Origin: Candidatus Levyibacteriota bacterium
Lineage (GTDB): Bacteria; Patescibacteriota; Microgenomatia; Levybacterales; UBA12049
Length of the DNA: 64,000 bases
NCBI GenBank assembly: GCA_052034235.1
Contig: JBPOIT010000011.1
Span: 118,719 to 182,718, forward strand
Reading direction: 5' to 3'
Each line of letters opens with the position of its first letter. The stretch's first letter is position 1. A program made the position numbers and the translations under genes. The notes under the pieces were generated by a model, which saw only the letters and a program-made list of their open reading frames with translations, did not search any database and had not been told where the DNA came from. Positions 20,082 through 49,513 of the stretch are shown piece after piece.

Positions 20082-21644
20082 ATGATGCTTTTTACAAAAA
20101 AGAATGTATTTTTAGGACTTGTCGCAGTACTGGCGCTTAGTATCCCAATTACCGTCGGCATATTACAGCAGCAACAAGAAACTCGAGGAAGGGCTTCTGC
20201 TTCAACCTCTCTCGCTTTCACACCCACAACATCAACAACTGCCCCTATACAAAAGAAAATGGGAGAAACTATTTCACTCGATTTAATCGTCACCCCAAGT
20301 AACAATCTCGTTACCTTTGTGAAATTTGAACTAAAATATGACCCTACCAAACTTGAACCTGTGGGTACTGATCCGTTTACGCTCAACACGAGCGCTTTTG
20401 TTTCAAAAGACGGGCCAGTGATCACATCAGGCAGACTGATTGCTTCAGCTTCTGTCGGTTCAGATCCGACAAAAGCAATTCAAAAACCAACAAAAGTAGG
20501 GACCATTCTCTTTCGGGCTATTGGAGGAACGGGTAGTTCTCCGACGACGATTACCTTTGAGAATCTCACCCAAGCACTTTCTTCAGCGACAACAGATCAA
20601 GCTTCTGAAAATGTTATCTCAACAACATCCCCTGCGCATATCCTTATCGCAAATAATATCCAAGCATGCACAAGTAATAAATATAAAGCCGAAATGACAG
20701 CAGGACAGGAAGTCCCTACCAACACAAGTTCTGCTAGTGGAACGACAACACTTTCTCTCCTTGCTGAAAGCAAGGCAGATGCTACAACTACTGTCAAAAA
20801 TCTACAGCCTGGCGATGTAACTGGTATGTTCATCTATAGCCCTGCATCAGCTAGTGCTAAAGGCGCACAAAGAGTAACGCTTTATGCCACTGGGACATTT
20901 GCGAATCCTCATACAGCTAATGACGTTTTTATTCCTGAGGATGTACTGAATGATATTAATAGTGGTAATGCTTATGTTGGAATTACTACCAAACAATACG
21001 CAAATGGGGAGATTCGCGGAAAACTGACATGCGTCACAGGAGGTGGCAATGAAGAAACAAATCTTAATTTCGAACTTCTACTCCATGGCATCGGTTCAGC
21101 CGGAGATAATCCTAATCCAAGCGGGAGTTCTCTAAGCAATAAAAATCCATTACACCCTCAACGAAATCTTCAACTCGAGATATATGATGTTGATAACAAA
21201 CTTGTGACAAGTGTTTCTGGAGACCTTTCTCTTAATTACGAAGTTAACGGCGGAATCTTTAAAGGGTCATTGAGCCTTGGAACCAATTTCCAGGAAGGAA
21301 ATTACAATTTGAAAGTAAAATCAGACAGGTATCTTAAACGACGTGTCCCCGGCATTATTCAAATTAAACCAAAATCAGATACACGTGTTCCGAAAATTGA
21401 TTTAGTAGCGGGTGATATTAATAGTGATAATACGCTTAATGTTCTGGACTACAACGCACTTCTTGATTGTGGTTACGGCGAAATTGAACCACTCCCAATG
21501 GCAGATCCAAATGCAATTTTTAACAAAACAGAATGTCAGGCACATACACCTGCTGAGCTCATTGATCTTGATGATAACGGCATCATAAATGGACCTGATT
21601 ATAATCTGTTTATACGTGAACTTTCGGTTCAGAATGGTGACTAG
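20082..21644 (+). CDS. Surface protein with, in order, signal/TM, cohesin-like module, CHRD domain, beta-sandwich and dockerin-type double Ca-binding repeat
   Basis: The CHRD signatures are AGQEVP…YVGITTKQYANGEIRGKL. The dockerin-like segments are AGDINSDNTLNVLDYNALL and DLDDNGIINGPDYNLFIRE. The N-terminal module is shared with 25420, 27757 and 28932. Confidence 0.6.
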   Translation: MMLFTKKNVFLGLVAVLALSIPITVGILQQQQETRGRASASTSLAFTPTTSTTAPIQKKMGETISLDLIVTPSNNLVTFVKFELKYDPTKLEPVGTDPFTLNTSAFVSKDGPVITSGRLIASASVGSDPTKAIQKPTKVGTILFRAIGGTGSSPTTITFENLTQALSSATTDQASENVISTTSPAHILIANNIQACTSNKYKAEMTAGQEVPTNTSSASGTTTLSLLAESKADATTTVKNLQPGDVTGMFIYSPASASAKGAQRVTLYATGTFANPHTANDVFIPEDVLNDINSGNAYVGITTKQYANGEIRGKLTCVTGGGNEETNLNFELLLHGIGSAGDNPNPSGSSLSNKNPLHPQRNLQLEIYDVDNKLVTSVSGDLSLNYEVNGGIFKGSLSLGTNFQEGNYNLKVKSDRYLKRRVPGIIQIKPKSDTRVPKIDLVAGDINSDNTLNVLDYNALLDCGYGEIEPLPMADPNAIFNKTECQAHTPAELIDLDDNGIINGPDYNLFIRELSVQNGD

Positions 21645-21647
21645 TAT

Positions 21648-23624
21648 ATGAAATATTTCCAAAAAAGAAAAAAACTTATTCCCTTAGCTATTTTTATAGC
21701 CCTTTATCTCCTCGTTCTTGTGCCGCTTATCGTATTCAACTTGCAGCAGCGCCAAGATATTCGCAGCAAAGCACAGGTCGATCCAACACCTGGTGTGCAG
21801 CTTGCAGCAGTGTGCGGCAATGCATCTTCAGATATCGTCCTTGTGATTGATCGATCAACAAGTATGACCGGACAGAAATTCACTGACGCAAAGAATGCTG
21901 CAAAATTATTTGTCGATATTATCGATCAAGATAATAACAATTCCCGCATAAGCCTTGTGTCATATGCGGGGAACTCAACAATTAATACACCTATGACAAA
22001 TAACTTTACTTCTATTAAAACCGCGATCGACGGGTTACAACTTCAATCAGGAACTTGTATTCAATGTGCTGTTAAATCAGCAATTCAAACAATCGCAAAT
22101 AACCCTGGAGCAAACAAAAAAGTAGTTGTTTTGTTAACTGACGGACGTGCAAACCGTGTTGATGGCAATTCAACGAGCGAAACAGTCGCAGAACAAGCTA
22201 CATTAACGGCTGTGACAAACGGTCCAGCTATGCCCTACTTTACCATCGGCCTTGGATCTGACGTAAATACAAACCTTCTTCAAAATATAGCAGCAAAATT
22301 TGGAGCAAAGTACTACTTCCCTCCTACACCTGAGCATTTGAACGCAATTTATAAAGAGATCTCTGAAATTGTAGGCAAAGGTTCTGTCTCAGGGTTTGTC
22401 TTTGAAGATCTAAATGCAAACGGAGCGTTTGAAAGTACAGAGCCCAAACTACCAAATTGGCAGGTACAGGTCACACAACAAGGCACAGGGACAACGCAAA
22501 CTGTAACAAGTGATAACCTCGGTAACTATTATGCTGCCGGTCTTTGCGATGGATCACACCAAGTAAAACAAGTTGCCCAAACCGGTTGGAGACAGACATT
22601 GCCAACTGATGTTAACGGACATGTTATTACTGTGACCAATGCAAACGCGGTCATAGACAAGAACTTTGGCCAAACAAAAGCGACAAGATGTTCAGATAAG
22701 ATTGATAATGACAATAACGGATTTATAGATGAAAAAGATTCAACCTGTCACACTGATGGTAATCCAAATAATCCGAACTCATACGATCCTAACAAAGATG
22801 GCGAACGTGGTGGAAATACTTGTGCAGATTCAAAAGATAATAATGGGAACGGTTTAATTGATGGTGCAGATCCAGTATGTCATCCAGGTGGCGATATCAC
22901 AAAGCCTTGGGATCCAAACCTTCCAGAGGTTAATCCTACGCCTACGCCAACATTAACACCGACACCAACAAAAGTGCCTACTGGTACGCCAACACCAACT
23001 CCAACGAAAGTCCCAACGGGCACACCTACGCCAACACCAACTGCTGTTCCAACTTCAGTGCCAACACAAGGCTTGACGAGTTTTCAATTGACAGTTTTCC
23101 AGCACGGTATCGGATCAAGTGGTGATAATACAAATGCAGCAAGTTCGCTCAGTAATAAAAATCCTCTCAGAAAAACTGTCCCAGCAGAATTGCAATTATA
23201 TGATCTAAATAATAACCTGATCGGCGCGGGAACAGGCAAAGTGAATTATAACGAACAAACAGGCAATTACATCGGAACTATCAGTATTACACCAAATGTT
23301 TTTACAACTGGAAAATATACACTTAAGGTAAAAACTGAGGGACATTTGAGAAAACTTATGACCGGTATTCAAACAATTGTCGCCGGACAGCATAACACTT
23401 CCCTACCTGCAGTTTCACTGGTGACTGGAGATATCGACAATAATAATGCGCTGAGTATTCTTGATTACAATCTATTGCTTGACTGCTACAGTGATTTGAC
23501 TGTTGCATCAAATTGTTCTGATACCAAAAAGAAAACTTCATCAGATCTTAACGATGACGGTCCTGTTAACCAAATTGACTACAATCTCTTCTTAAGAGAA
23601 ATTGCAACGCAACCTGGAGAATAA
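21648..23624 (+). CDS. Surface protein with, in order, signal/TM, VWA domain, SdrD-B-like domain, two TSP3-like Cys-bracketed Ca-binding repeats, Pro/Thr linker, beta-sandwich and dockerin-like module
   Basis: Has MIDAS DRSTSM…LLTDGRAN, and Ca-binding repeats DKIDNDNNGFIDEKD and DSKDNNGNGLIDGAD. The linker is PTPTPTLTPTPTKVPTGTPTPTPT. The C-terminal module is homologous to those of 20082, 25420 and 27757. Confidence 0.6.
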   Translation: MKYFQKRKKLIPLAIFIALYLLVLVPLIVFNLQQRQDIRSKAQVDPTPGVQLAAVCGNASSDIVLVIDRSTSMTGQKFTDAKNAAKLFVDIIDQDNNNSRISLVSYAGNSTINTPMTNNFTSIKTAIDGLQLQSGTCIQCAVKSAIQTIANNPGANKKVVVLLTDGRANRVDGNSTSETVAEQATLTAVTNGPAMPYFTIGLGSDVNTNLLQNIAAKFGAKYYFPPTPEHLNAIYKEISEIVGKGSVSGFVFEDLNANGAFESTEPKLPNWQVQVTQQGTGTTQTVTSDNLGNYYAAGLCDGSHQVKQVAQTGWRQTLPTDVNGHVITVTNANAVIDKNFGQTKATRCSDKIDNDNNGFIDEKDSTCHTDGNPNNPNSYDPNKDGERGGNTCADSKDNNGNGLIDGADPVCHPGGDITKPWDPNLPEVNPTPTPTLTPTPTKVPTGTPTPTPTKVPTGTPTPTPTAVPTSVPTQGLTSFQLTVFQHGIGSSGDNTNAASSLSNKNPLRKTVPAELQLYDLNNNLIGAGTGKVNYNEQTGNYIGTISITPNVFTTGKYTLKVKTEGHLRKLMTGIQTIVAGQHNTSLPAVSLVTGDIDNNNALSILDYNLLLDCYSDLTVASNCSDTKKKTSSDLNDDGPVNQIDYNLFLREIATQPGE

Positions 23625-23636
23625 AACTTAACGAGT

Positions 23637-25352
23637 ATGAAAAAGGTGAAAAAAAGAACAACTCATCAAATGAAACAAATAAAAAAAATAAAAAATAAGG
23701 ACTCATTTCTAAAGCAAATGATTGGTTTTCGATGGCAAATTGCTGTCGTAGCGCTTTTTGCTATTGTCGCTTTTGTTGCAGTTTACTTCACTTTCCAAAC
23801 CAAAGCTGCAACGGCATGGCCACTTAAAGTGAGTCAAAATGGACGCTACCTCGTAGATCAAAATAATAAGCCATTCTTTTACACAGCAGATACCGCATGG
23901 ACGCTTGTAAACAAACTCACTGCTGCTTCTGCAAAAAAATTAATTGATGTACGTAAAGAGCAAGGATTTAACGCAATTCAGGCAAGTCTGAGCGGATTTG
24001 GAAGAACAATACCAGGCCCACAAGGAACTCCTTTCCAAAATGGTGATTTAACAAAACCCAACGAAGAATATTTTAAAGTAGTTGATGAAATTGTGAAATA
24101 CGCAGAATCGAAAGATATGGTGCTCGTGATGACACCATTTTGGCTCGGAGACAATGGCGGCAAATTTGGTGGAACATTGCCATCAGATGCAGAAATGCAA
24201 AGTTACGCTGCTTTTCTAGGGAACCGATATAAAAATTCTGGTAACATCATCTGGTTTGTCGGTGGAGACGATGCAGCAGACAGCAATGAAGCAGCAATAA
24301 AACTTTTGGGTAGCGCACTAAAAGCTGCTGATCCTAATCATCTTATAACTGCTCATAACGACGCTAAGACTTTCCAATATAAAAATGAATCTTGGTACAG
24401 TTTGTATGCATTCCAATGGAATGCCAATAGTCCGCCATACAGTTATAAAGATGTTGACGATGGCTATAACCAAACTCCGATAAAACCTGTTTTTAACATG
24501 GAGCCTGCGTATGATCCTTCTACGTGTTGTGGAACTGATAAGGATACGACACCACAAAAAAACAGACGAAGCGGCTGGTGGTCAATACTTTCTGGAGCTA
24601 TGGGTGTTGTTTATGGCGGACCACGAGAAGCTTGGAATGCAAGTGAACCATTAAATCTAGATGCTCTTAACAGGGTTCCAGCTACTCACACAGCAAACAT
24701 TCAAAAAATTCTTAGTGTTTATCCATGGGAGAAATTAGTTCCGGATAACAATAAGGATAGCTTTACCGTAGTAACTGGCGGCAGAGGGACATATGACAAT
24801 GATGATTTTGCAACAGCTGCACGCGCAAGCGATGGCAGTCTCATTGTTGCGTATATACCTACTGGAAGAACATTGACTGTAGACATGTCCAAACTATCAG
24901 GTCCAGCAACTGCATCCTGGATAGATCCAACAAATGCTGCAAAAACTGATGCAGGTGCCAATTTGCCAAATAGCGGAACAAAAGATTTTGCTCCACCAAG
25001 TGCCAACGCAGGTGGCGATAGTGACTTTGTCCTTATTCTCACAACAGGTACCACTACCATATCTACAGTCCCAAATGTATCTCAACCGATAACAAGTCCG
25101 CCATATGTATGTCTTGGTCCATGTGTTCCTTCTGTATCACCGGGAGTTTCTATAGTACCAAGTAACGCAGCACCTGTTCCGTCTGAAGATCCACTCGATC
25201 CCGATAACCCGACAGATCCAGATATTAACCCTTCAACACAGCCTAATCCAATAGATGATGGCGACAACAATCAAAAACCGAAAGGCCTCTTTGCACTCAT
25301 CCTGGAGTTCTTCCGAATACTACTCGAATTTCTTCTAAGCCTTTTTAGATAA
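23637..25352 (+). CDS. Putative glycoside hydrolase (DUF4038/GH140-like TIM-barrel) with N-terminal TM and a Pro-rich C-terminal tail
   Basis: The segment WPLKVSQNGRYLVDQNNKPFFYTADTAWTL…EQGFNAIQ… resembles DUF4038-type hydrolases. The C-terminus is Pro/Asp-rich and then hydrophobic. Confidence 0.5.
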   Translation: MKKVKKRTTHQMKQIKKIKNKDSFLKQMIGFRWQIAVVALFAIVAFVAVYFTFQTKAATAWPLKVSQNGRYLVDQNNKPFFYTADTAWTLVNKLTAASAKKLIDVRKEQGFNAIQASLSGFGRTIPGPQGTPFQNGDLTKPNEEYFKVVDEIVKYAESKDMVLVMTPFWLGDNGGKFGGTLPSDAEMQSYAAFLGNRYKNSGNIIWFVGGDDAADSNEAAIKLLGSALKAADPNHLITAHNDAKTFQYKNESWYSLYAFQWNANSPPYSYKDVDDGYNQTPIKPVFNMEPAYDPSTCCGTDKDTTPQKNRRSGWWSILSGAMGVVYGGPREAWNASEPLNLDALNRVPATHTANIQKILSVYPWEKLVPDNNKDSFTVVTGGRGTYDNDDFATAARASDGSLIVAYIPTGRTLTVDMSKLSGPATASWIDPTNAAKTDAGANLPNSGTKDFAPPSANAGGDSDFVLILTTGTTTISTVPNVSQPITSPPYVCLGPCVPSVSPGVSIVPSNAAPVPSEDPLDPDNPTDPDINPSTQPNPIDDGDNNQKPKGLFALILEFFRILLEFLLSLFR

Positions 25353-25419
25353 ATAGTTTAGGAAAACTCATCTTGACAGTCTAAGCCTAAATTCATTATG
25401 CTTACAGTGATACTGTCTT

Positions 25420-27753
25420 ATGTCTTTTTTTACAAAAAAACGATTAGTGCTTGGTGGATTATTTTTACTCGCTATCGTTCTGCCGGTTACTATCCTTTTC
25501 TTTCAAAATCAACAAAATATAAGATCCCGTGCTGATAAAACTGTCGTGCTATCTTATGAACCAGGATCTACGGCAGGCGCTCCCCTTCAAATCCCAGCAG
25601 GAAGTACATTCTCGCTTGATGTCTTTGTTGATCCTGGAGCAAGTGCAGTATCGTATGTCAAAGCAGAACTTGTGTATGACACTGGGAAATTTGAAGCGGC
25701 TGGCGGGTTTATTCCTAACCAGGAAGCATTCTCTCAAGTTATAGAATCAACCGATGCTCCTGGGAAAGTAACTACCACACTTTCTGTAGGATCTGATACA
25801 TCCAAAGCACTTAAGGCTAAAACAAAAATTGGCACAATCTCATTGCGGGCATTATCAACTGTCGCGACCAACTCAGAAGGCACGATTAACTTTGGTGCAG
25901 GTTCACAAGCACTCGCTATAAGTGCCAACAGCTCATTTAACGAAAATGTTATAGCAAATACAGTTCCCGCAGTTATTCGTTTCAATCAACCTTCAAATGT
26001 CTGTGGTAATGCATCAAGCGATACGATGCTTGTTATCGACAGATCTGGAAGTATGGCTGATAAAGAAGGTACGAGTGGTACCAAAATCTCAAACGCAAAA
26101 ACTGCAGCCAGTAACTTTATCGATATCGTTGCAAGAGACGCAGCCAATAAATTCGGCCTCGTTTCATTCGCTACTACCGCTAGTTTGAACAGTCCAATTG
26201 CGAGTGATGCAAACAGCGTAAAATCACAAATAAATTCACTTTCAACCTCATCATATACCTGTATTGAATGCGGGATACTCAAGGCAAATCAGGAAATAGC
26301 CGCAAAGAAACGGGCTGGAACTAAAAATATTGTCATCCTCTTAACTGATGGTCGTGCAAATGTTGTTGAAGGAAATACTGCAACTGCAGCAGAAGCAACA
26401 GCAGAACTTAAAGCGACAAATGCTGCCATAAGCGGATATAATGCCAACGGAACAATCTTTTTTACGATAGGCCTCGGGAAAGATGTTAATTCAGAATTCC
26501 TTACCAAACTTGCAGAAAAAACGGGAGGTCAATACTACTACAGCCCAACAACAGATCAGCTCAACGGCATTTATAATCAAATCTCTCAAATAATCGCCAA
26601 AGGCAGTGTCGCGGGGAACGTCTTTAATGATACCAATGCCAATGGGACACTTGATCAAGGCGAAGAAAACCTCCCAGGTGCAATTGTGCAGCTTCACTCC
26701 TCTACCCAATCACCTCAATCAGTGACATCTGATAGCACAGGGAATTTCGCAATTACTAATCTCTGTGACGGAAACTATACCTTAAAGCAAGTTCTCCAGT
26801 CAGGCTGGAAACAGACTTTCCCGGCAAACAGCGGCGACCATACAATTGCAATCGCAAATGGCAGTGCAATAACTAACAAGAATTTTGGCAACAATAAAGG
26901 TACACGCTGCTCTGATGGGATTGATAACGACGGCAATGGTTTTATCGACACAAAGGATTCTACCTGTCATACAGATGGCGACCCAACGAATCCTAATTCC
27001 TATGATCCTAACAAAGATGGCGAACGTGGTGGAAATACTTGTGCAGACTCAATTGATAACAACAATGACGGCAAGATAGATGGTGCGGATCCAGTTTGTC
27101 ACACGGACGGCGATCCTACAAAACCTTGGGATCCAAACTTGCCTGAGAATGCCAAACCAACACCAACCCCGACTGCGGCACCAACAATTCCTCCACCTGC
27201 AAATGCTGCTCAGTTCAATTTGGATGTCATACTGCACGGTATAGGATCTGGCGGAGACAATGCAAACCCAACTGCAAATAGTTTCAGTAATAAAACGCCA
27301 CTCAACCCTATACAACAAGCATCTATCAGAGTCTTTAACGCAAGTAATCAATTGTTTGCAACAGCTTCAGGCGTTGTCACATACAGTAGTGCAAGCGGCA
27401 GCTATAAAGGTGTGTTAACAGCTGATAAAGCGATCAGTGCAGGACCATATATTATCCGTGTAACTATTGATAAACATCTTACACGCCTTGTCCCGGGAAT
27501 CCAGTCACTTAAAGAAAATGTTGACACATCGATTTCTTCAATTCAAGTTGTAGCTGGAGATATAACCCGCGATAACAGACTCGATATCCGTGATTATAAC
27601 AATATTCTCGATTGTTATAGTGATTTATTGCCGCCTGTTTCTTGTGATGATCCGCAAAAGAAAAAAGATACTGATATTAATGACGACGGCAATGTTGGAC
27701 AATTTGATTACAACTTGTTCCTGCGTGAACTTTCTACACAACCGGGTGAATAA
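25420..27753 (+). CDS. Surface protein with, in order, signal/TM, cohesin-like module, VWA, SdrD-B-like domain, TSP3-like Ca repeats, Pro/Thr linker, beta-sandwich and dockerin-like module
   Basis: Carries the combined architecture of 20082 and 21648: MIDAS DRSGSM…LLTDGRAN, DGIDNDGNGFIDTKD, DSIDNNNDGKIDGAD, and a C-terminal DINDDGNVGQFDYNLFLRE. Confidence 0.6.
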   Translation: MSFFTKKRLVLGGLFLLAIVLPVTILFFQNQQNIRSRADKTVVLSYEPGSTAGAPLQIPAGSTFSLDVFVDPGASAVSYVKAELVYDTGKFEAAGGFIPNQEAFSQVIESTDAPGKVTTTLSVGSDTSKALKAKTKIGTISLRALSTVATNSEGTINFGAGSQALAISANSSFNENVIANTVPAVIRFNQPSNVCGNASSDTMLVIDRSGSMADKEGTSGTKISNAKTAASNFIDIVARDAANKFGLVSFATTASLNSPIASDANSVKSQINSLSTSSYTCIECGILKANQEIAAKKRAGTKNIVILLTDGRANVVEGNTATAAEATAELKATNAAISGYNANGTIFFTIGLGKDVNSEFLTKLAEKTGGQYYYSPTTDQLNGIYNQISQIIAKGSVAGNVFNDTNANGTLDQGEENLPGAIVQLHSSTQSPQSVTSDSTGNFAITNLCDGNYTLKQVLQSGWKQTFPANSGDHTIAIANGSAITNKNFGNNKGTRCSDGIDNDGNGFIDTKDSTCHTDGDPTNPNSYDPNKDGERGGNTCADSIDNNNDGKIDGADPVCHTDGDPTKPWDPNLPENAKPTPTPTAAPTIPPPANAAQFNLDVILHGIGSGGDNANPTANSFSNKTPLNPIQQASIRVFNASNQLFATASGVVTYSSASGSYKGVLTADKAISAGPYIIRVTIDKHLTRLVPGIQSLKENVDTSISSIQVVAGDITRDNRLDIRDYNNILDCYSDLLPPVSCDDPQKKKDTDINDDGNVGQFDYNLFLRELSTQPGE

Positions 27754-27756
27754 CGT

Positions 27757-28881
27757 ATGTCAAAAAAAACGCTTCTCGTGATCGGTCTTGTAGTCGTTGC
27801 ACTCGTAGGTATACCTGCTGCGCTGCTTGTCTCTCAACAGACACAAAATATCCGTTCAAAAGCATCTGGATCAACAACGCTTGCTATTACTCCTGGCACA
27901 ACTGAATCAACACCGTTACAAAAAGGTATTGGTGAAACGGCTTCATTTGAGGTTTGGGTAAAGCCAGGAGATAACATGCCTTCGATGATCAAAATGGAGA
28001 TTAATTATGATGCTACGTACTTTGAAAATACGCCAAATACCTTTACGGTAAATAATGAGGCCTTTCCCGTGACCGTTGAGGGTCCTGTTGTAACTGATGG
28101 AAAAATACTTGTTGCTGTATCGATTGGCTCAGATAGTACAAAAGCAATTCAAAAAGAAACCAAAGTCGGCACACTCACTCTGAAAACAAAAGCAGTCACT
28201 TCTTCCCCCACGAAAATCTCATTGGGTACAATTTCTGAAGTTCTTTCAGTCGCGACAACCGATCAGGCGGCAGAAAACGTGCTTGCGACAACACTCCCCG
28301 CGTTTGTCATCGTTGCAGAAGCCCCGACACCGACAGCAACAACACTCACTTTCACAGCTTTCCTTCATGGCATTGGCAAAAGCGGTGATAATGCCAATCC
28401 AAGCGCTCACAGCATGAGTAATAAAAATCCCCTTCACGAATCACGGCAAATCTTTATTGAGGTTATTAACGATCAAAATATCGTGACAGCTACAAAAGCA
28501 GGAATCCTTACTTATAATAAAGACAATGGTAACTTTACCGGCACTTTTGATTTTGGACAATCATTACCTGAAGGCGACTATATCATAAAATTAAAAGAGC
28601 CAACTCATCTTCGTAAACTTGTCGACGGAATCATATATATTAAACCCCAGCAGAGCAATCAAATTCCGGAGGTCGCCTTTGTTGCAGGCGATGTGAATAA
28701 CGATAATACACTCAATATACTTGATTATAATATCATTTCCGGCTGTTACAGTGATTTACTTCCCGCAGTTGCCTGTGACGATCTCAAAAAAGAAATCTCA
28801 GATTTAAATGACGACGGGAAAGTAAACCAATACGACTATAACCTTTTCCTCAGAGAAATCATTGTCCAATATGGCGGATAA
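27757..28881 (+). CDS. Surface protein with signal/TM, cohesin-like module, beta-sandwich and dockerin-like module
   Basis: The N-terminus is homologous to 20082 (…GSDSTKAIQKETKVGTLTL…ATTDQAAENV…). The C-terminus has AGDVNNDNTLNILDYNII and DLNDDGKVNQYDYNLFLREI. Confidence 0.6.
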   Translation: MSKKTLLVIGLVVVALVGIPAALLVSQQTQNIRSKASGSTTLAITPGTTESTPLQKGIGETASFEVWVKPGDNMPSMIKMEINYDATYFENTPNTFTVNNEAFPVTVEGPVVTDGKILVAVSIGSDSTKAIQKETKVGTLTLKTKAVTSSPTKISLGTISEVLSVATTDQAAENVLATTLPAFVIVAEAPTPTATTLTFTAFLHGIGKSGDNANPSAHSMSNKNPLHESRQIFIEVINDQNIVTATKAGILTYNKDNGNFTGTFDFGQSLPEGDYIIKLKEPTHLRKLVDGIIYIKPQQSNQIPEVAFVAGDVNNDNTLNILDYNIISGCYSDLLPAVACDDLKKEISDLNDDGKVNQYDYNLFLREIIVQYGG

Positions 28882-35791: not shown

Positions 35792-36587
35792 ATCGCAGTA
35801 AGAACTATTCTGCTCCCCACTGGACGTGCGGATTTCCCGCATCCAGCGAGTCTCTTATAAAAGCCTCTTTGAGAAGTTTTATCTTCTCAATGCCAGAAAT
35901 GGTTAAATGATGCTTTTGAAGCATGAGATTTGCTACGATACAAAATAGAGCAAAACTCTGCTTTTTCTTTGCTTGTAGAGGATATTTTGTAAAGAATGGA
36001 ATAATTTTTGTTGTAATATCTTTTAAGTTTGAGACCTTATATTTGTAATGCGGTCTCCACTTTTTATACCTCTCATATTTGAGATGGTAGATATTGCCAC
36101 AAGCAAACGATTCTTTAATCCTTTCTAAAATTTCCAAATCATCTTCTCGTAATTCTATTTCGAAGATGAGTCTTACTTCAAGCAAACGATTGTTTTTGTG
36201 TTTGTTAAAACTAACACTAAAACAACCTTCACCATCAACTAATCCAACAATATAATAAGGATTTAATTTTGAGTTCATCCCTTCCTCTAAAATCATTATA
36301 CATAATTCTAAAGTACTATGGAATCTGCTGACTTCCTATAGCCGATTATAGTTCTGATGCATATAGGATCTCCTTGGGTCACTTAAAAGACAATTTCAAA
36401 CATCCTAAGAAGCTTTTCTAGTCTCTTCCTCTTAGTACACGTAAGAGTCGAGAAGCTTTGTTTATCTTAGGCTGCTCTTCGTTTCATCGAACCCTTCAGA
36501 CTTTCCCTTACGGGAGAAGTCCTGTTCTTCAACTACAAGAATGGATTTTCACCATTTTGTCGGTTAAGCTGCCAAGCGCATTTAATT
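35792..36587 (-). mobile_element. Intron inserted in the 16S rRNA decoding-region helix (near E. coli position ~1395), probably group I
   Basis: The sequence between the TTGTACA and CACCGCCCGTC halves of the conserved 16S motif has no rRNA similarity and contains a homing-endonuclease ORF. Confidence 0.75.
35805..36296 (-). CDS. LAGLIDADG-family homing endonuclease encoded within the 16S intron
   Basis: 163 aa with an IVGLVDGEGCFSV motif (a single LAGLIDADG motif is visible). Confidence 0.8.
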   Translation of the reverse strand: MILEEGMNSKLNPYYIVGLVDGEGCFSVSFNKHKNNRLLEVRLIFEIELREDDLEILERIKESFACGNIYHLKYERYKKWRPHYKYKVSNLKDITTKIIPFFTKYPLQAKKKQSFALFCIVANLMLQKHHLTISGIEKIKLLKEAFIRDSLDAGNPHVQWGAE

Positions 36588-36885
36588 TGTACAAGACCCG
36601 AGAACGTATTCACAGCGGCCTACTGATCCGCGATTACTACTGATTCCTCCTTCATGCAGTCGGGTTGCAGACTGCTATCTGAACTGAGGCGAAATTTCTG
36701 AGATTTGCTTGCCGTCGCCGGCTTGCTGCTCTTTGTTCTTCGCCATTGTAGGGTGTGTGTAACCCAGGGCATAAGGGCCGTGCTGACTTGACGTCTTCCC
36801 CTCCTTCCTTCCCGATATGATCGGGACCGTCCGAAATGAATATGTAACATTTCGCGGGGGTTGCGCTCGTTTCCCCACTTAAGGG

Positions 36886-36929
<44 letters not shown>

Positions 36930-37038
36930 GTACCATCCTTACGGATCTACCAATGTTTCCAAAGGTATTAAACGGTATCATGTCAAGCCCTGGTAAGGTT
37001 TTTCGCTTTGTCTCGAATTAAACCACACGCTCCACCAG

Positions 37039-37070
<32 letters not shown>

Positions 37071-37870
37071 TAACCTTGCGGTCGTACTCCCCAGGCGGTT
37101 CGCTTAATGCGTTAGCTTGAACCTCTGCAGACAAGTCTGCAAAAGTTAGCGAACATCGTTTACGGCTAGGACTACACAGGTATCTAATCTGTTTCGCTAC
37201 CCTAGCTTTCGTGCCTCAGCGTCAGGAAAAACCCAGGAGCCTGCCTTCGCCCTTGGTGTTCCAGTTAATATCAACGCATTTCACTGCTACACTAACTGTT
37301 CCAGCTCCCCGATCAATCCTCAATTCCGTGAGTATCACCACCAGTCCCAAGGTTAAGCCTTGGTCTTTAAGTAATGACTTTACGGAACGCCTACGCACAC
37401 TTTACGCCCAATGAATCCGGATAACGCTTGCCTCCTACGTATTACCGAGACTTCTGGCACGTAGTTAGTAGAGGCTTATTCTCCAAGCTGTGAAAGGCTT
37501 GGCAAAAGGAGTTTACAACCCGAAGGCCTTCATCCTCCACGCGGCGTCGCTGCGTCAGACTTTCGTCCATTGCGCAATATTCCTGGTTGCTGCCATCCGT
37601 AGATGTATTGCCCGTGTCTAAGTGCAATTGTGGCTGATCGACCTCTCAGTCCAGCTACCCGTCATCGCCTTGGTAAGCCTTTACCTTACCAACTAGCTGA
37701 TGGGACGCAGGCTCCTCTCTCGGCGGACCGTTAAGTCCTTTACCCTTGCGGGACTATAGTGAATTACCCGACCTTTCGGCCGGCTATGCACTACCCAGAG
37801 GTAGATTCCTACGCGTTACTCACCCGTCTGCCACTTGAATATTACTATTCCCGTTCGACTTGCATGCCTA

Positions 37871-37913
<43 letters not shown>

Positions 37914-38100
37914 AAAAAAAATTTGGGTTTCAGATTTCTTTATTTGTATAAGGAATAATCTGAAAAAAATTCCTACCACATCTTGATTGTCAAACGCATG
38001 ATTATCCAAATCACACGCTTGAACTGTTGCGTGAATAAGTGTGTTGTGTATTTCGTTTTTAAAGAGCAATAGTATTTATTGTAGAGCGTTTTGAGATAAA

Positions 38101-43584: not shown

Positions 43585-44747
43585 TTATCTTGCACCATCA
43601 AATACTATTATTTCCCTTCTTGTTGCCTTTTGTTCTAAATAATAGTTTCTGTTAGCTTGCTCTGTAACAGCTCTCGTAACATCAAAAATAGGTTGTATAG
43701 AAACATGTGTTTCATCAGTAACTCTACCATTATGTCCCAACACGTCCACAGCACTTGCAAACATCGCTTGTACTTCAACAAAGTTTTGTCCATCAGGCAA
43801 CCCCGTATCAAGATATCCACTTGAGCCACCTCGTACTACAAAGTTGCCTTGACCTATTTCAACAAGATTAGGCACTAAACCATTTTTTGCAATAACGGGC
43901 TCACCACCGTCAATAGATACTGAAAGATATGGACTAGTAGCAATTCCAGGTTCTGCTACTAATTCGCTAACTGTTATGTTTGACTTCAAATTATCAGTAC
44001 CATCTATCGCCACAATCGCACCTTTGCGTGGATCTGGAATAGCCTCCACATCAAGTGAACCAGAGATATGATCTGTCCCTCCACTCAAAACATCAAAAGC
44101 AACCTCAATAAAAGGGCCTCTTGAAAGGAATTGATCAACACGATGACCATCCAGTACATGCCCCTCTACAATATGTGGTTTAACATATGAAAGATTACTG
44201 CCCCTATCAACTGTAAATAGATGCGTGCCATTATCAAGGCGTGCATATACTAACTCGTTAGAATTATCTTTACCAGTCCAACTTCTATTATCCCCAGGAC
44301 TATATCGTGAATTGGTATTAACATACCCAACACGAGTACGTCCCTTATGATCTTTATTAACAAGCGCTTGCCATGTCTGATAACCAGTATTTTCTGTTGC
44401 GAACTTATCATTATGTCCTGAAATTACATGCGCAACTTCTAATCCATATTCTTCTGCCACTGCTGTCAAATTGAGGTCTACTTCAACATTTGCAAAATCA
44501 TCTCGCCCATGTCCACCTCCAAAATCTGTTATCCGGACAATATCAAATGGTCCCTTTACAAGTGCACGATCAGGCACCAACAAGCCTGTTTTTCTATCAG
44601 GCCTAAAGCTACTCGTGTCAATATGCGGAGCCTTACCATTTGCAGTAGGGAGAGCTCCTTCCACAAGAAAAATGCCACTCGGAGTAGCAGCTGTTGGGAT
44701 TGGTAAACCGTTTCTTGAAATTTGTTCTAGACTTGGTCGTGCCATAT
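43585..44747 (-). CDS. Hypothetical 388-aa protein under SAM-riboswitch control, no family recognised
   Basis: The start is taken at MARPSLEQ (44747), with GGGAGG 16 nt upstream. The ORF-track N-terminal extension to 44895 overlaps the riboswitch and is rejected. Motifs include ITDFGGGHGRDD, VISGHNDKF and SGGTDHISGSLD. Confidence 0.5.
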
Positions 44748-44749
44748 AA

Positions 44750-44918
44750 AACAAAAAAACCTCCCGGAAAGGAGGTTTATTACAAAAAAATTGTTTTCCA
44801 GATTTAATCTGGACTAATCCTCCCCCTACGGGATTGGGTTTGGCACCGTGGTATTTACTCGGTTGCCGGATGGGTCTTCGGAGCCAATTCTCCATTCGCC
44901 ATCACTCTTGATTAGCAA
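44750..44918 (-). promoter_or_regulatory. SAM-I (S-box) riboswitch with aptamer at 44811..44916 and intrinsic terminator at 44750..44776
   Basis: The minus-strand aptamer is GCUAAUCAAGAGUGAUGGCGAAUGGAGAAUUGGCUCCGAAGACCCAUCCGGCAACCGAGUAAAUACCACGGUGCCAAACCCAAUCCCGUAGGGGGAGGAUUAGUC. It contains the S-box blocks AUCAAGAG, GGAG, CCGGCAACC and GGUGCCAA, and P1 pairs CUAAUC with GAUUAG. The terminator is CCUCCU-uucc-GGGAGG followed by U7, and its 5' arm can alternatively pair with the aptamer's GGGGGAGG. Confidence 0.75.
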
Positions 44919-44962
44919 TATAATAGCATAGAGCACATATGATGACAAGAGGTTTTTTGTGA

Positions 44963-46030
44963 TTAGTGCGGGGTCATGCACGCACCTGTTGACTGATTCC
45001 AAATTGGTTTCGGATCGACAGTGAGATTTGCTGGTGGATCAATAATAATTTGTGTGTCTCCACTTGGAGTGATTGAGTTTTCGCATTCCACAACCGCCTG
45101 TGCGTCTGAAGGATTTCCAACATAAAGATCAACCATTGTCACGACGCCGCAACCTTTAGGCGCTGTCCATGAAACAGCGCATTCGTCCTCTTTGATGAAA
45201 TATTTTTGAACACGCGGCACATAAATAATTTGTCCAACTTTGTATGCTCCAGCACCCGCTGGAGATGCAAATGTTAATGGATCTGCATGTGTTCCTGTAC
45301 CGCCTGCTTCCTGATGGATAACGGGATTTGCGATTGCTTTTGAACCTTTTGGATCATTGTCGTAGGCACCATAAAAGGTAATTTTCACATTGGCAGTTGT
45401 GCCAGCGCCACCTGATGGGACAACTGAAAGCACTGTCGAAGGTACCGGTGGTGCTACTGAAGTTGATGTACTTGGCACAGGTGCTGTTGAAGGATCAGGA
45501 CATGGAACTTCTTCTTCCTGCTCTTGTTCTTCATCTGGTGTTGTATCTTCTTCATTTGGAACGTTGCTTGGGGCTGGGACAGTATTTTCGTCGGGCAGTT
45601 TGATCGTTCCTTCCCCCAATAATTTATTGATAAGTTCAATAAGCCATTCAAGTATCTGCTTCATAAATTTACTTACTTCCCCATCGTGAATTTTATGTTT
45701 GCTTTTGTGTTTACTTTTCTTGCTATGTGCAGTTGACGCCCCTCCCGTAACACATGGATCTGCTGGAGTTTGACTCATACTTGTTGAAGGAGTTTGCGCT
45801 GTGGGTGCAGGAGCACTACTTGTTACCGGTGATACTGCAACAGATGTGCAGGACGGACACGGTGCTAATGGATAAAAGCTTGGTTTTATCACAGATGATG
45901 CTTCTGTTCTCACGTCCTGCTCTTTTTGGACGAGGAAAATAGTTAGAGGCATTAACATCGCGAGCATGACCGCATATGCAACAAGACTAAGTTGCCTCAC
46001 ATGTTCCCTTTTATGATTGAATTCGTTCAT
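44963..46030 (-). CDS. Secreted protein with Pro/Ser/Thr-rich linkers, a basic KSKHK/amphipathic module and a C-terminal 3D/double-psi-beta-barrel-like domain
   Basis: Signal/TM N-terminus. The C-terminus (…ITFYGAYDNDPKGS…THADPLTFASPAGAGAYKVGQIIYVPRV…) resembles MltA-type 3D domains. It shares an internal module with gene 46074. Confidence 0.45.
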   Translation of the reverse strand: MNEFNHKREHVRQLSLVAYAVMLAMLMPLTIFLVQKEQDVRTEASSVIKPSFYPLAPCPSCTSVAVSPVTSSAPAPTAQTPSTSMSQTPADPCVTGGASTAHSKKSKHKSKHKIHDGEVSKFMKQILEWLIELINKLLGEGTIKLPDENTVPAPSNVPNEEDTTPDEEQEQEEEVPCPDPSTAPVPSTSTSVAPPVPSTVLSVVPSGGAGTTANVKITFYGAYDNDPKGSKAIANPVIHQEAGGTGTHADPLTFASPAGAGAYKVGQIIYVPRVQKYFIKEDECAVSWTAPKGCGVVTMVDLYVGNPSDAQAVVECENSITPSGDTQIIIDPPANLTVDPKPIWNQSTGACMTPH

Positions 46031-46073: not shown

Positions 46074-47879
46074 TTAGTCACAAGTACCTGGATCGTCAGG
46101 GTAGTTTGGATTAATGTTATGGACGCATGCATTGGTACAACATTTCCGTGCACCTGTTGCATCACATTTTTGACCGCTTGGAATACATGCAAATACTTGC
46201 GTAGGCGCTGCACTTGGAGCAACACTAAACGGCTGCGTAATTGAAGGCGCGACAGAGACTGGCGTTGATGGAGCAATGATAGGTGCCACTGACGGTGAGA
46301 CGACCGGAACAGATGGATTTATTGTAGGGACAGGTGCACTTGTTGGAGCACTTGTCGGCGCGCATGGATCAGGTACTGTGGATGGAGTTGGCTGCGGGTT
46401 TGGAAGAGGTGTTGTCCCACCACCGATAAGTCGCAGAAGCAGATTTAAAAGTTCAATAAGAAACCTGAGCAGTGCGTCCATAAATTTACTCACACCACCG
46501 CTTTTCTGTTTATGTTTGCTTTTCTTTTTCTTATTGTGAGCAATCGACGCTCCTTCGGCTACGCAAGGTTGCGTTGATACACTTGGAGTCGTAGTTCGAC
46601 TTGAAGGTTGAGGGTTTGTACTTGCGGAACTCGGAATTGGTGAAGTTACGCCACAGCTGGGACAAGGAGCAATAACGCCGTAGGTTGGTGTTATGAAAGC
46701 AGATGTCGGTGCTGAATTAGCGGCAAAGTTGACTCGAATAATTTTATCATCCTCCGCTTGAGGGGTTCCCCTGCCGTCTCTATTTGAAGTTGTGATGTAT
46801 AACTGATTATCAGGACCAACGATTACTTCACGAATACGGCCAAACTGCCCCTTGAAGTGCTGATTAACGATACTGGCTGTTGTGCCTTGCACTTTTGCTT
46901 CATACAGAGCTTGTCCTTTGAGTCCTCCAAAAAAGATCGAATCATTAAAGAAAGCTGTACCCGCAGGTGCCCACGTTGTTGTTGCATCATTGCCGCTATG
47001 AACAAGCGGCGTTACCATACCTGTTTGCTGAGCATCACCTTCGATAGTTGGCCAGCCATAATTTTTGCCTGCTTCGATAAGATTAAGTTCATCAGACCTT
47101 GATGGCGAAGAATTACCATGCTCTGTTGCATAAAATGTCGAACCGTTCCAAGTAAGGCCCTGTGGGTTACGATTACCATATGAATACGTTCTATTATTAA
47201 ATGGATTTCCAGGTGCAGGTTGACCTGTATCAGTTACTCTCAATATTTTCCCGGCCAAAGAGTTTGTGTCTTGTGCAGATGATGGATTTCCTGCATCACC
47301 TGTTGTTATATATAAAAAGCCATCCGGTCCAAATTTAATTCGACCCCCATCATGATTTGTACCTCCTGGTATCGCATCTACAATAGTTGTCGGGCTTGTC
47401 ATTTGATTATTGGAAAAGACATACCGAACAACACGATTCAATGTGTTTCCGCTTGTTTCCTGATATGTGTAATACAGGTATACAAAATTATTTGAAGCAA
47501 ATTGCGGATGAAGCGCGATACCAAGCAGACCTCCTTCACCGGTAGCTTTCACCCCGGTTATTGCAACTATATCTGTCGTTTGTCCATTTGCCGGAGCAAT
47601 GAGTTTTACCGTACCTGGCCTTTCAGTAACCAACATATTCCCATCCGGCAAAAAAGCTATCGCCCAAGGAATGTTTAAATTCTTGGCAATTATTCTTGTT
47701 GCCGGTGTACCAGACGGAAGATTCTGCGCTTCAGTTTTCAGAGATTGATTGGTATTTATATTGGCTGTAAATATAACTAAAACTATCAGTGGAAGAACAA
47801 GAAGTAACAGTAAGAAGAGATGAGATATGTGATGTCTGTGCATATTTTTATTGTACGTACGCACAACAACTTTTTGCAA
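46074..47879 (-). CDS. Secreted soluble quinoprotein glucose/sorbosone dehydrogenase-like beta-propeller protein with a Cys-rich C-terminal extension
   Basis: GSDH-family patterns (…NIPWAIAFLPDGNMLVTERPG…, …NHDGGRIKFGPDGFLYITTGD…, …GKNYGWP…) are followed by the module shared with gene 44963 and a Cys-rich tail. Confidence 0.55.
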   Translation of the reverse strand: MQKVVVRTYNKNMHRHHISHLFLLLLLVLPLIVLVIFTANINTNQSLKTEAQNLPSGTPATRIIAKNLNIPWAIAFLPDGNMLVTERPGTVKLIAPANGQTTDIVAITGVKATGEGGLLGIALHPQFASNNFVYLYYTYQETSGNTLNRVVRYVFSNNQMTSPTTIVDAIPGGTNHDGGRIKFGPDGFLYITTGDAGNPSSAQDTNSLAGKILRVTDTGQPAPGNPFNNRTYSYGNRNPQGLTWNGSTFYATEHGNSSPSRSDELNLIEAGKNYGWPTIEGDAQQTGMVTPLVHSGNDATTTWAPAGTAFFNDSIFFGGLKGQALYEAKVQGTTASIVNQHFKGQFGRIREVIVGPDNQLYITTSNRDGRGTPQAEDDKIIRVNFAANSAPTSAFITPTYGVIAPCPSCGVTSPIPSSASTNPQPSSRTTTPSVSTQPCVAEGASIAHNKKKKSKHKQKSGGVSKFMDALLRFLIELLNLLLRLIGGGTTPLPNPQPTPSTVPDPCAPTSAPTSAPVPTINPSVPVVSPSVAPIIAPSTPVSVAPSITQPFSVAPSAAPTQVFACIPSGQKCDATGARKCCTNACVHNINPNYPDDPGTCD

Positions 47880-47917: not shown

Positions 47918-49513
47918 ATGCTAAAAAATGATATAGTGGTCAGCAATAAGCCTCGCGCTCTTTTTGAAATGAAAACTTTTTTCACTTACCTTTTAATATT
48001 TCTCGCATTCTTTGGAATGCTTGATGCGGGATATTTAACATACGAACATTATCAAAACGAAATTCCACCATGCAGTGTAAGTTTTCTCGCTAGCGATTGC
48101 GGCGCGGTATTAACCAGTGAATATGCAATTGTTTTTGGCATTCCACTTGCACTGATTGGGCTTGCACATTATTACGTCTCAACAATCGCCCATATGTATG
48201 CAGCGATAGGCAAAAAAAGAAAGGCACGTTATCTCACGATTATACTCGCCTATGCTGGCCTTATAAGCTCAATTTATTTTGTATATTTGCAGCTAATCGT
48301 TATCCAATCAATTTGTTTATTCTGCATGGGTTCTGCACTGATTAGCACACTTATCTTTATCTTTGTCCAATTCGCATTTCAAAAAGAACAAAAATTACTT
48401 TTTTCGTTGGTATTTGGTTATTTCTACCGAAATGTTGCAAAGCCAATATTATTCAAACATGATCCTGAAATCGTGCATGAAAGGATTACTTCATCGAGTG
48501 AAATGTTTGGTAAATTCCCACCGATTAAATGGTTTGCAAAACTGTTTTTTCACTACAAAAATAACGCCTTGAAGCAAACTGTTGCCGGAATCACTTTTCA
48601 AAATCCCGTGGGCCTTGCAGCGGGGTTTGACTATGACGCAAAACTGACACAAATTCTACCAAGCGCTGGATTCGGATTTCAAGCAGTTGGAACAATTACC
48701 AATTTTTCATACGAAGGAAATAAACGCCCAATGCTCGGACGACTCCCCAAATCAAAATCACTTATGGTAAATAAAGGTTACAAAAATCTAGGCGCTTTGA
48801 AAACTGCAGAAAAATTAAACACACTTCACTTTGCCTATCCTGTGGGAATCAGCATCGGTGCGACTAATTTTCAAAAAAAGATAACCTTAAAAGACGCTAT
48901 CAACGATGTTGTTGACGCTTTTAAGGTTTTTGAAAAATCACCTGTGCGGCACGCATATTATGAACTAAATATCAGTTGCCCCAATTTATATACCGATATT
49001 AGTTTTTATCCGCCTAAGAATTTACGAGCACTACTTGAAGCTGTTGATAAACTTAAAATTAAAAAACCAATTTTTGTCAAAATGCCAATTGATCACACTG
49101 ACAAAGAAACCCAAGACATGCTCAAGGTGATTGCGGATCATTCACCGGTAGGAGTTATTTTTGGCAATCTCCAAACGAATAGAAAAGATGCTTCACTTGT
49201 TCAGAGCGAAGTAAAACAATTTAGTGTCGGTAATTTCAGCGGTAAACCTACATTTGTTCGTTCAAATGAATTAATTGCACTTACATATAAACAGTATAAA
49301 AAGCGATTTGTAATCATAGGCTGCGGGGGCATATTTAGTGCTGAGGATGCATATAAAAAAATTACATTGGGTGCAACACTTGTACAGCTTATTACTGGAA
49401 TGATTTTTGTGGGTCCGCAGCTAATTTCAGACATCAATATAAAACTTGTCGATCTTATAAAAAAGGACGGATTCACCCACATCTCTGAAGCAATTGGTTC
49501 AAAAAACACCTAA
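47918..49513 (+). CDS. pyrD: Fusion of a vitamin-K-epoxide-reductase-like (VKOR) membrane domain with class 2 dihydroorotate dehydrogenase
   Basis: The N-terminal 150 aa have a loop Cys pair (CSVSFLASDC), SEYAIVFGIPLALIG and a TM CxxC (ICLFCM). The rest aligns with quinone-dependent PyrD (GITFQNPVGLAAGFD, ELNISCPN, IIGCGGIFSAEDAYKKITLGATLVQLITGMIFVGPQLI). Confidence 0.7.
   Translation: MLKNDIVVSNKPRALFEMKTFFTYLLIFLAFFGMLDAGYLTYEHYQNEIPPCSVSFLASDCGAVLTSEYAIVFGIPLALIGLAHYYVSTIAHMYAAIGKKRKARYLTIILAYAGLISSIYFVYLQLIVIQSICLFCMGSALISTLIFIFVQFAFQKEQKLLFSLVFGYFYRNVAKPILFKHDPEIVHERITSSSEMFGKFPPIKWFAKLFFHYKNNALKQTVAGITFQNPVGLAAGFDYDAKLTQILPSAGFGFQAVGTITNFSYEGNKRPMLGRLPKSKSLMVNKGYKNLGALKTAEKLNTLHFAYPVGISIGATNFQKKITLKDAINDVVDAFKVFEKSPVRHAYYELNISCPNLYTDISFYPPKNLRALLEAVDKLKIKKPIFVKMPIDHTDKETQDMLKVIADHSPVGVIFGNLQTNRKDASLVQSEVKQFSVGNFSGKPTFVRSNELIALTYKQYKKRFVIIGCGGIFSAEDAYKKITLGATLVQLITGMIFVGPQLISDINIKLVDLIKKDGFTHISEAIGSKNT

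Follow-up and report, generated by a model that had tools for sequence, protein, structure and literature searches.

The 64,000-nucleotide stretch of a Candidatus Levyibacteriota bacterium contig analyzed here (hereafter the window) carries, on its minus strand, a leader RNA with the architecture of an S-adenosyl-L-methionine (SAM) riboswitch, directly followed by the gene of a 386-amino-acid protein that profile comparisons and a structural model place in the SAM hydrolase/halogenase (DUF62, SAM_HAT) superfamily as a very divergent member. The coding sequence spans 43585..44745 (-), with an ATG at 44745 and a stop codon at 43587-43585; an earlier note, made by inspecting this DNA, had counted 388 residues. 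The protein comprises an N-terminal extension (residues 1-65), a two-domain SAM_HAT core (~68-353) and a C-terminal helix (~358-385). The public gene call (P0001, 436 aa) starts at 44895 and covers 43585-44895 (-), running through both the aptamer and the terminator, and the same over-extension recurs in the public calls of loci L004, L005, L008 and L009. The 436-aa calls are an annotation error, the real start being the ATG at 44745.

Upstream of the leader, a consensus scan predicts a sigma-70-like promoter site (44920..44948, minus strand) with a -35 element TTGTCA (44948-44943), a 17-nt spacer and an extended -10 element TGcTATTAT, the -10 hexamer itself occupying 44925-44920. This site has 10 of 12 consensus matches plus the TG, and TTGACA/TATACT-type sites are found at the equivalent place in the leaders of L001, L085, L105 and L106. 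The sequence implies a transcription start at, or just within, the 5′ strand of P1. The aptamer (44814..44915, -), recognized by its RF01725 score and by covariation, belongs to the SAM clan and shows a SAM-I/S-box architecture. Its P1 helix, read from the sequence, pairs CUAAUC (44915-44910) with GAUUAG (44819-44814); it further contains P2a and P2b separated by an internal loop, P3 with a GCAACC/GGUGCC core, a P4 of 3 bp (CCC/GGG) and a pseudoknot in which AUUGG of the P2 loop pairs with CCAAU of J3/4. The P2 internal loop lies at the place expected of a kink-turn, with CGA on the 5′ side and GAAGA/GAUGA on the 3′ side as seen by sequence alone, and bears an insertion in the window copy. The minus strand contains all three strings of the S-box core, AUCAAGAG, CCGGCAACC and GGUGCCAA.

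The aptamer is followed by a hairpin, CCAGAU-UAA-AUCUGG (44798..44812, -), which the RF01725 model aligns to its external P4. The antiterminator 5′ strand GGGGGAGGAUUA (44815..44826, -) runs from the P4 3′ strand through J4/1 into the P1 3′ strand; its 3′ partner UAAUAAACCUCCUUU (44768..44782, -) overlaps the 5′ arm of an intrinsic terminator. This terminator (44753..44778, -), detected by a terminator scan with 9 pairs, reads AAACCUCC-UUUC-CGGGAGGUUU (44778-44757) followed by a U7 tract (44759-44753), its stem arms being AAACCUCC and GGGAGGUUU around the UUUC loop. The Shine-Dalgarno sequence GGGAGG (44760..44765, -) lies within the terminator 3′ arm, 14 nt 5′ of the ATG, a layout shared by every orthologous leader. 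All RNA elements that the earlier note had described in this leader were recovered: a minus-strand S-box aptamer with this P1 and these core strings, now with covariation in five aptamers, and a terminator hairpin with U7 and a ribosome-binding site in its 3′ arm. The sequence CCAGAuuuaaUCUGG that it gave for the post-P1 stem-loop was wrong and is replaced by that reported above.

An explicit SAM-I structure (P1, P2a, P2b, P2-loop/J3-4 pseudoknot, P3 and P4) was tested on the five aligned orthologous aptamers. In this alignment 98.6% of the cells are paired, a value that falls to 19-48% when the partner is slid by 1-3 columns. Both partners have changed in five pairs, of which P2a contains one and the pseudoknot and P3 two each; none of 500 shuffles attained the observed pairing and covariation values. 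The pseudoknot AUUGG/CCAAU, common to the window, L001 and L006a, becomes CUUAG/CUAAG in L003, corresponding to two compensatory pairs. All helices of the SAM-I four-way junction formed by P1, P2, P3 and the internal P4 pair in the five aptamers.

Nascent transcripts of six leaders (window, L001, L002, L003, L006 and a second L006 riboswitch sitting 5′ of an MTHFR-like/MetE operon) were folded up to the terminator loop. In each of them, P4 3′, J4-1 and P1 3′ together form a strand that pairs with the segment that precedes and includes the terminator 5′ arm, and a post-P1 hairpin of differing sequence is present at the equivalent position. In the window, the pairing of GGGGGAGGAUUA with UAAUAAACCUCCUUU encloses the post-P1 hairpin, and the terminator folds at -20.7 kcal/mol once the P4-to-P1 3′ strand is blocked, mimicking the ligand-bound aptamer. 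The antiterminator sequence varies by locus (CCUCC, CUCCC, CCUCCC) with its complementarity to the aptamer 3′ end retained. The folds thus show the two mutually exclusive states of an OFF platform, a GC-rich hairpin with a U tract and an antiterminator to which the aptamer 3′ strand contributes, and an identical platform is found 5′ of the MTHFR-like/MetE operon of L006 and of the core MetE gene of L085. Since ligand binding would remove the competitor of the terminator, namely the P4/P1 3′ strand of the aptamer, the leader is predicted to be a transcriptional OFF switch; that it is SAM-repressed is indicated by the occurrence of the same platform in front of MetE genes and of the same aptamer subtype in front of metK. 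Both the terminator/antiterminator alternative and the SAM repression proposed in the earlier note are in line with these results.

In the mechanism that we propose, SAM binding would allow P1 and P4 to form and lock up GGGGGAGGAUUA; the CCUCC-containing segment would then pair with GGGAGG, forming the terminator and burying the ribosome-binding site. At low SAM, GGGGGAGGAUUA would pair with UAAUAAACCUCCUUU around the post-P1 hairpin, and the gene would be transcribed and translated. As the terminator 3′ arm includes the Shine-Dalgarno sequence, termination is probably reinforced by translational sequestration.

We classify the leader as a variant of the SAM-I/S-box type whose P4 is minimal, rather than as a SAM-I/IV riboswitch, because of its architecture and because leaders of the same type, orthologous or paralogous, exceed the RF00162 gathering score of 44.4 (L006, 49.9; L106, 51.6; L120, 48.9; L105, 46.9). 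Two observations count against this assignment. In a search confined to the aptamer, RF00162 (SAM-I), the model that the earlier note had proposed as a check, gives the window copy 32.9 bits, under its gathering score, and it is the clan sibling RF01725 that passes; furthermore, P4 is invariant in the five aptamers and is therefore without covariation support. A SAM-I/IV riboswitch whose post-P1 hairpin belongs to the aptamer and not to the expression platform would be favored by the Rfam scan of the whole window at gathering thresholds, in which RF01725 (SAM-I/IV, 44919-44781, 45.8 bits versus 41.1) is the sole riboswitch and no other model of the clan exceeds its gathering score, and in which the hairpin 44812-44798 is aligned as P4. 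The SAM-I/IV class is reportedly defined by a P4 hairpin located 3′ of P1 and by a second pseudoknot to which the P3 loop contributes. Here, however, P4 is internal and P2 carries an internal loop, orthologous leaders pass the RF00162 threshold, and the hairpin varies freely in sequence while closing the antiterminator of every leader. In four of the five leaders, the P3 loop is no more complementary to the post-P1 region than expected from shuffles, and no conserved second pseudoknot, as expected of SAM-I/IV, was seen among the leaders examined. Because the post-P1 hairpin is enclosed by the antiterminator pairing in six leaders, the external P4 of RF01725 corresponds to the apex of the antiterminator, and the aptamer has its own P4 inside the junction instead of 3′ of P1. 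We therefore consider a SAM-I/IV riboswitch highly improbable. Even less credence, indeed almost none, is given to an ON switch through which SAM would induce a SAM-degrading enzyme for homeostasis. Clearing excess SAM would intuitively suit a SAM-cleaving enzyme, but the terminator 5′ arm competes with the aptamer's own P4/P1 3′ strand, so that the ligand favors the terminator, and the metE and metK genes found behind the identical platform and the same subtype, respectively, must both be SAM-repressed.

Compared with the S-box leaders of Firmicutes (RF00162; yitJ, metI and metK of B. subtilis), the SAM-I/S-box leader of the window shares the core elements AUCAAGAG, GCAACC and GGUGC, the four-way junction with the P2-loop/J3-4 pseudoknot, the formation of an antiterminator from the P1 3′ strand ahead of an intrinsic terminator, and a regulon that includes metK, metE and a homocysteine methyltransferase. 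It differs by a P4 cut to 3 bp, an insertion in P2, a ribosome-binding site in the terminator 3′ arm, a score under the RF00162 threshold and above that of RF01725, and a regulated protein family without report in S-box regulons in the literature searched. With SAM-I/IV (RF01725) it has in common the SAM-binding core and a window copy above the gathering threshold of that model, whereas the internal P4, the P2 internal loop and the external hairpin acting as expression platform set it apart. The Rfam SAM-I and SAM-I/IV models can thus be misled by an expression-platform hairpin.

Searches with the single 386-aa protein gave no match in Pfam, even at E ≤ 10, nor in NCBIfam, PHROGs or PDB sequences, and only four close relatives were retrieved among 5.8 billion clusters. 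When 1.84 billion representatives were searched exhaustively with HMMER, a four-sequence profile added a fifth family member (P0005; 42% identity, E 8e-88), the five members sharing 42-70% identity, and revealed a sister family of ~50 proteins of 215-344 aa (E 1e-14 to 1e-4). Several sister-family proteins match SAM_HAT_C (PF20257) and, weakly, SAM_HAT_N (PF01887), some of them above the cut-off. A word-index homologue search with the mixed alignment yielded six proteins only, and protein-based scans of genome contigs and metagenome contigs found no relative.

Profiles including the sister sequences match the DUF62 proteins of the PDB, namely 2zbu from Thermotoga, PH0463 and MJ1651, the latter deposited as '(R)-S-adenosyl-L-methionine hydrolase'. 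With hhalign, the 386-aa family aligns with the sister family at 100% probability (E 2e-47), the sister family with canonical Thermococcales DUF62 at 98% (E 1.5e-12), and the combined alignment (A3) with canonical DUF62 at 94.9% (E 4.7e-8), residues 68-353 of the window protein corresponding to 1-256 of PH0463. An AlphaFold (AF2) model built from 22 sequences reached a predicted local distance difference test (pLDDT) score of 81.3 and a predicted template modeling (pTM) score of 0.76; with four sequences only, the pLDDT was 34. The top 27 Foldseek matches of the model in the PDB are all DUF62 hydrolases (MJ1651, TM, TT) or chlorinases (SalL, ClA1, ClA2), with E-values from 1e-12 to 1e-9, target TM-scores of 0.64-0.78 and 13-18% identity, and the next match is unrelated (E 3e-3). 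A phage capsid-like or other structural protein was ruled out by this unambiguous fold search. The claim of the earlier note that the protein is unclassifiable thus holds for sequence searches in Pfam, NCBIfam and the PDB and fails for profile and fold searches, which place it in the SAM_HAT superfamily.

Enzymes of the SAM_HAT superfamily bind SAM and displace L-methionine from the C5′ of the adenosyl group. The protein motifs quoted in the earlier note are present in the translation, and one of them, ITDFGGG..D, is the N-terminal TDFG motif of the superfamily, whose aspartate we take, from the SalL and FlA structures, to bind the ribose hydroxyls. With the DUF62 hydrolases (PH0463, MJ1651, StDUF62, SaciSAMH), the 386-aa protein shares the two-domain fold (Foldseek E 1e-12, target TM-score up to 0.78), the aspartate of the N-terminal TDFG motif, and the DxxGN, GSSG and xEI...SA motifs; canonical members with an N-terminal extension moreover fill the same riboswitch-controlled slot in related contigs. 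It is distinguished from them by its 13-18% identity and lack of a Pfam match, by a broken catalytic triad (His to Leu207, Asp to Asn), and by its 65 N-terminal residues, its C-terminal helix and insertions such as GGHGR after TDFG and YSPGDNRSWTGKDN. The halogenases (SalL, ClA1/ClA2 and the fluorinase FlA) have the same fold (Foldseek E 1e-12 to 1e-9) and are also devoid of the hydrolase triad, but the similarity to them is no closer than to the hydrolases, a natural-product cluster context is absent, and regulation and neighbors point to primary methionine/SAM metabolism.

All five loci of the 386-aa family (window, L001, L002, L003 and L006) carry the same type of leader. In L003, a homocysteine S-methyltransferase gene (HSMT; PF02574, 1e-42, YitJ-like) lies 10 nt downstream of the 386-aa-type gene. 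In L006, the gene is located between the riboswitch-controlled MTHFR-like/MetE operon and a 168-aa GAF protein followed by topA, in L001 between dprA and the same GAF protein, and in the window topA directly follows it. The order shared by L001, L003, L006, L085, L106 and L130 is dprA, riboswitch, 386-aa-type gene or canonical N-extended SAM_HAT gene, HSMT or GAF gene, and topA.

A metagenome scan with a pattern of the aptamer subtype returned 120 loci, for which the downstream gene was assigned by the simple rule of taking the first open reading frame (ORF), giving 106 ORFs, whose cluster representatives were compared with Pfam. The most frequent target is MetK (16/106), followed by five core MetE; a Cys/Met PLP (pyridoxal phosphate) enzyme, an M20 peptidase and several families without Pfam match were also found. 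Three first ORFs encode triad-less SAM_HAT-like proteins (L120, L105 and L122, the last on the same contig as L003) and three others canonical SAM_HAT proteins (L085, L106 and L130; PF01887, 99 bits) with intact VVDPGVGxxRR and TFHGRD motifs. The N-terminal extension of the canonical proteins weakly resembles that of the window protein: L106 is the sole non-self match of an N-terminal hidden Markov model (HMM) among 4660 fragments (E 1.4e-3). In L085, dprA is followed by a riboswitch, core MetE, a second riboswitch, SAM_HAT, an HSMT gene whose product shares 80% identity with its L003 counterpart, and topA. The order is dprA, riboswitch and SAM_HAT in L106, and riboswitch and SAM_HAT with GAF further downstream in L130. 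The L106 leader, in front of a canonical SAM_HAT gene, is nearly identical to that of L001, which precedes a 386-aa-type gene. As canonical SAM_HAT proteins occupy the same slot behind the same leader type, the 386-aa protein corresponds in position to a canonical SAM hydrolase under riboswitch control, and the synteny supports that its gene belongs to the methionine/SAM regulon. No SAM riboswitch was found in the sister-family loci L007, L010 and L011. The rest of the window contains no MetK, core MetE or canonical SAM_HAT gene, which says little on the whole genome.

Tandem units with two SAM-I riboswitches were observed in L006 (2567-2678 and 5816-5919) and L085 (~6684-6788 and ~7963), one riboswitch being 5′ of the MTHFR-like/MetE operon or core MetE and the second 5′ of the SAM_HAT-type gene. 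The 168-aa GAF protein is encoded after the SAM_HAT-type gene in three loci (L006, 7138-7644; L001, 2483-2989; L130, 3625-4131). GAF proteins of about this size include the free methionine-(R)-sulfoxide reductases, and by analogy the GAF gene may be another methionine-salvage gene. Families of ~300-320 aa also recur behind the riboswitch subtype (L034 +3635, L082 +1895, L090 +1993, L077 +203); these four clusters of 2-6 members without Pfam match are candidates for new methionine/SAM functions.

On the basis of regulation, fold and gene neighborhood, we consider it fairly probable that the 386-aa protein is a SAM-starvation-induced enzyme that recovers methionine and the adenosine moiety from otherwise unusable SAM species. 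A shortage of SAM would induce MetK, MetE/HSMT and the 386-aa enzyme together, the latter freeing methionine and the adenosine moiety from useless SAM species, the likeliest substrate being the spontaneously formed, inactive (R,S)-SAM epimer. The salvage role is suggested by co-regulation with metK, metE and HSMT and by the slot shared with canonical SAM hydrolases. Two routes of (R,S)-SAM salvage are known, one through SAM hydrolases and one through homocysteine S-methyltransferases (bioRxiv 10.1101/2025.08.29.672840), and (R,S)-SAM appears the best candidate because genes of both types share one riboswitch-controlled unit in L085 and L003. The data establish the riboswitch with its platform, the protein's fold and homology, the missing hydrolase triad and the shared synteny and regulon; which substrate is used, in which direction the reaction runs and with which nucleophile is inferred from them. 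The earlier note had predicted a missing step of methionine/SAM metabolism: membership in a methionine/SAM regulon, with HSMT, MetE and MTHFR-like neighbors, agrees with it, while its examples of methylthioadenosine (MTA)/S-adenosylhomocysteine (SAH) recycling or methionine uptake find no support, the fold pointing to the C5′ of SAM.

Several results weigh against this salvage reading, beginning with the active site. A review (PMC10491745) describes a His-Arg-Asp triad as strictly conserved among DUF62 hydrolases and missing in the halogenases. In PH0463 (P0057), it consists of Asp68 in VIDPGVG, Arg75, and His127 in TFHGRD. His127 aligns with Leu207 (QFLSRG) in every alignment, and this leucine is invariant in the five family members; Asp68 aligns with Asn145 in two alignments and with Asn143 in one. 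The equivalent of Arg75 is ambiguous (N153, R154 or N161), the mapping of the loop being uncertain. Since the triad is not intact, simple hydrolysis by the known DUF62 mechanism seems unlikely, and the nucleophile or the mechanism may differ from those of known hydrolases. Moreover, ~1.8 billion representatives yielded no more than five family members, which fall into two 50% clusters, and the induction of SAM cleavage at low SAM is counter-intuitive unless the enzyme is specific for a non-usable SAM species. The sister family has an arginine at the histidine position (QFRSRD) and an alanine at the aspartate position (NTAPR). Residues D74, T117, G121, N143, R147, Q205, F206, S208, D248, N252, K254, G307, S308 and A332 are invariant in both families, and the 386-aa protein keeps Asp74, the putative ribose ligand, together with GSSG and the Asn252 of DxxGN. 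The alignments point to an active site that is conserved but remodeled and more cationic. The protein is thus a member of the superfamily, yet not demonstrably a SAM hydrolase of known mechanism.

The loss of the triad, with Asp74, Asn252 (DxxGN) and GSSG kept, could also denote an adenosyl-transfer enzyme with another chemistry, in which invariant Arg147, Lys254 and Gln205 stand in place of the Asp and His; we regard this as possible but unlikely. The acceptor might be an anionic nucleophile, for example phosphate or pyrophosphate, giving AMP or ADP and methionine, or the enzyme might form SAM from methionine and a 5′-activated adenosine. The new set of residues invariant in both families (N143, R147, Q205, F206, S208, D248, N252, K254, G307, S308) fits such a change, and halogenases of this fold likewise lack the triad and are reversible (PMC10491745). 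A SAM-forming role would agree with S-box regulons, which classically include the SAM synthetase gene, metK being under the same riboswitch subtype here. However, the pocket positions of R147 and K254 come from the alignment, and any nucleophile would be conjectural; metK exists in the lineage as the commonest target of the same riboswitch, so that its replacement is unneeded; and the triad-bearing hydrolase in the same slot of relatives argues for a conserved methionine-releasing role. Taken to both families, this alternative would make the 386-aa proteins and the 'NTAPR/QFRSRD' sister family a new catalytic class that transfers the adenosyl group to an acceptor besides water or halide, or that forms SAM, an extension which we hold equally doubtful: the water-activating Asp and His may have been exchanged for the invariant Arg/Lys/Gln set, allowing for instance phosphorolysis to AMP and methionine. 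If true, it would represent a previously unknown SAM/methionine salvage step under SAM-riboswitch control. A catalytically dead SAM binder derived from a SAM hydrolase (pseudoenzyme, buffer or regulator) appears improbable. Two of the three triad residues are gone, and the lineage-specific 65 N-terminal residues and C-terminal helix could mediate interactions, but many polar residues are invariant in the five sequences and in the sister family, as in active sites, and the gene is regulated and placed like a metabolic gene, beside HSMT and MetE.

Two further candidates were rejected. An analogue of SAH hydrolase was discarded on the reasoning that a thioether is a poor leaving group for the SN2 chemistry of the fold, and a MetK replacement was dropped as a leading idea on the grounds of the prevalence of metK behind the same riboswitch in the lineage.

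We know of no riboswitch control of canonical DUF62 genes, and a literature search combining DUF62, SAM hydrolase or COG1912 with riboswitch retrieved nothing relevant. The riboswitch class and the protein superfamily are already known; relative to the literature searched, the SAM-riboswitch control of SAM_HAT genes, the triad-less 386-aa subfamily of five sequences and the implied SAM-starvation response appear to be new. What DUF62 SAM hydrolases do physiologically has been uncertain ever since they were discovered, and it is still debated whether (R,S)-SAM clearance is their true function (PMC10491745, PMC12120602, bioRxiv 10.1101/2025.08.29.672840). The presence, in one lineage, of canonical and triad-less SAM_HAT genes behind a SAM-repressed riboswitch, co-regulated with metK/metE and adjoining an HSMT gene, provides independent genomic evidence that SAM_HAT enzymes serve methionine/SAM recovery in SAM shortage and not the removal of excess SAM. 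The small, sharply diverged subfamily with its remodeled active site is a concrete target for enzymology.

Elsewhere in the window, the two genes upstream of the leader encode a 355-aa orphan (44963-46030, -) and a 601-aa GSDH-domain protein (46074-47879, -). By eye, both share a PCPSC...(Ser/Pro/Thr-rich)...C..GAS.AH.KK.K.K.K..G.VSKFM..L..LIEL.N.LL module followed by a Pro/Ser/Thr-rich linker, which suggests a common secretion or anchoring cassette. At 47918-49513 (+), a 531-aa fusion combines a VKOR-family membrane domain (PF07884, residues 25-149) with a dihydroorotate dehydrogenase (PF01180, residues 218-511), an arrangement that might couple a quinone/thiol redox module with pyrimidine synthesis. 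The 16S rRNA gene (36540-37919, -) spans the full model in 1380 nt, and no 23S gene was reported beside it in the window. Its shortness, together with the numerous orphan secreted proteins, is weakly suggestive of a Patescibacteria-like bacterium. The 16S gene is closely followed by a fragment resembling group-II-intron D1-D4 (36278-36354, -; 37.1 bits) and then by an ORF for a LAGLIDADG endonuclease (35805-36296, -; PF00961, 2e-24); these surroundings could be intron/homing-endonuclease remnants in an unlinked rRNA locus. Finally, large secreted proteins with VWA, SdrD_B, CHRD, dockerin and apiosidase-like domains are encoded at 13383-14528 and 20082-28881 (+), a cluster that looks like a surface/adhesion and glycan-degrading gene set.

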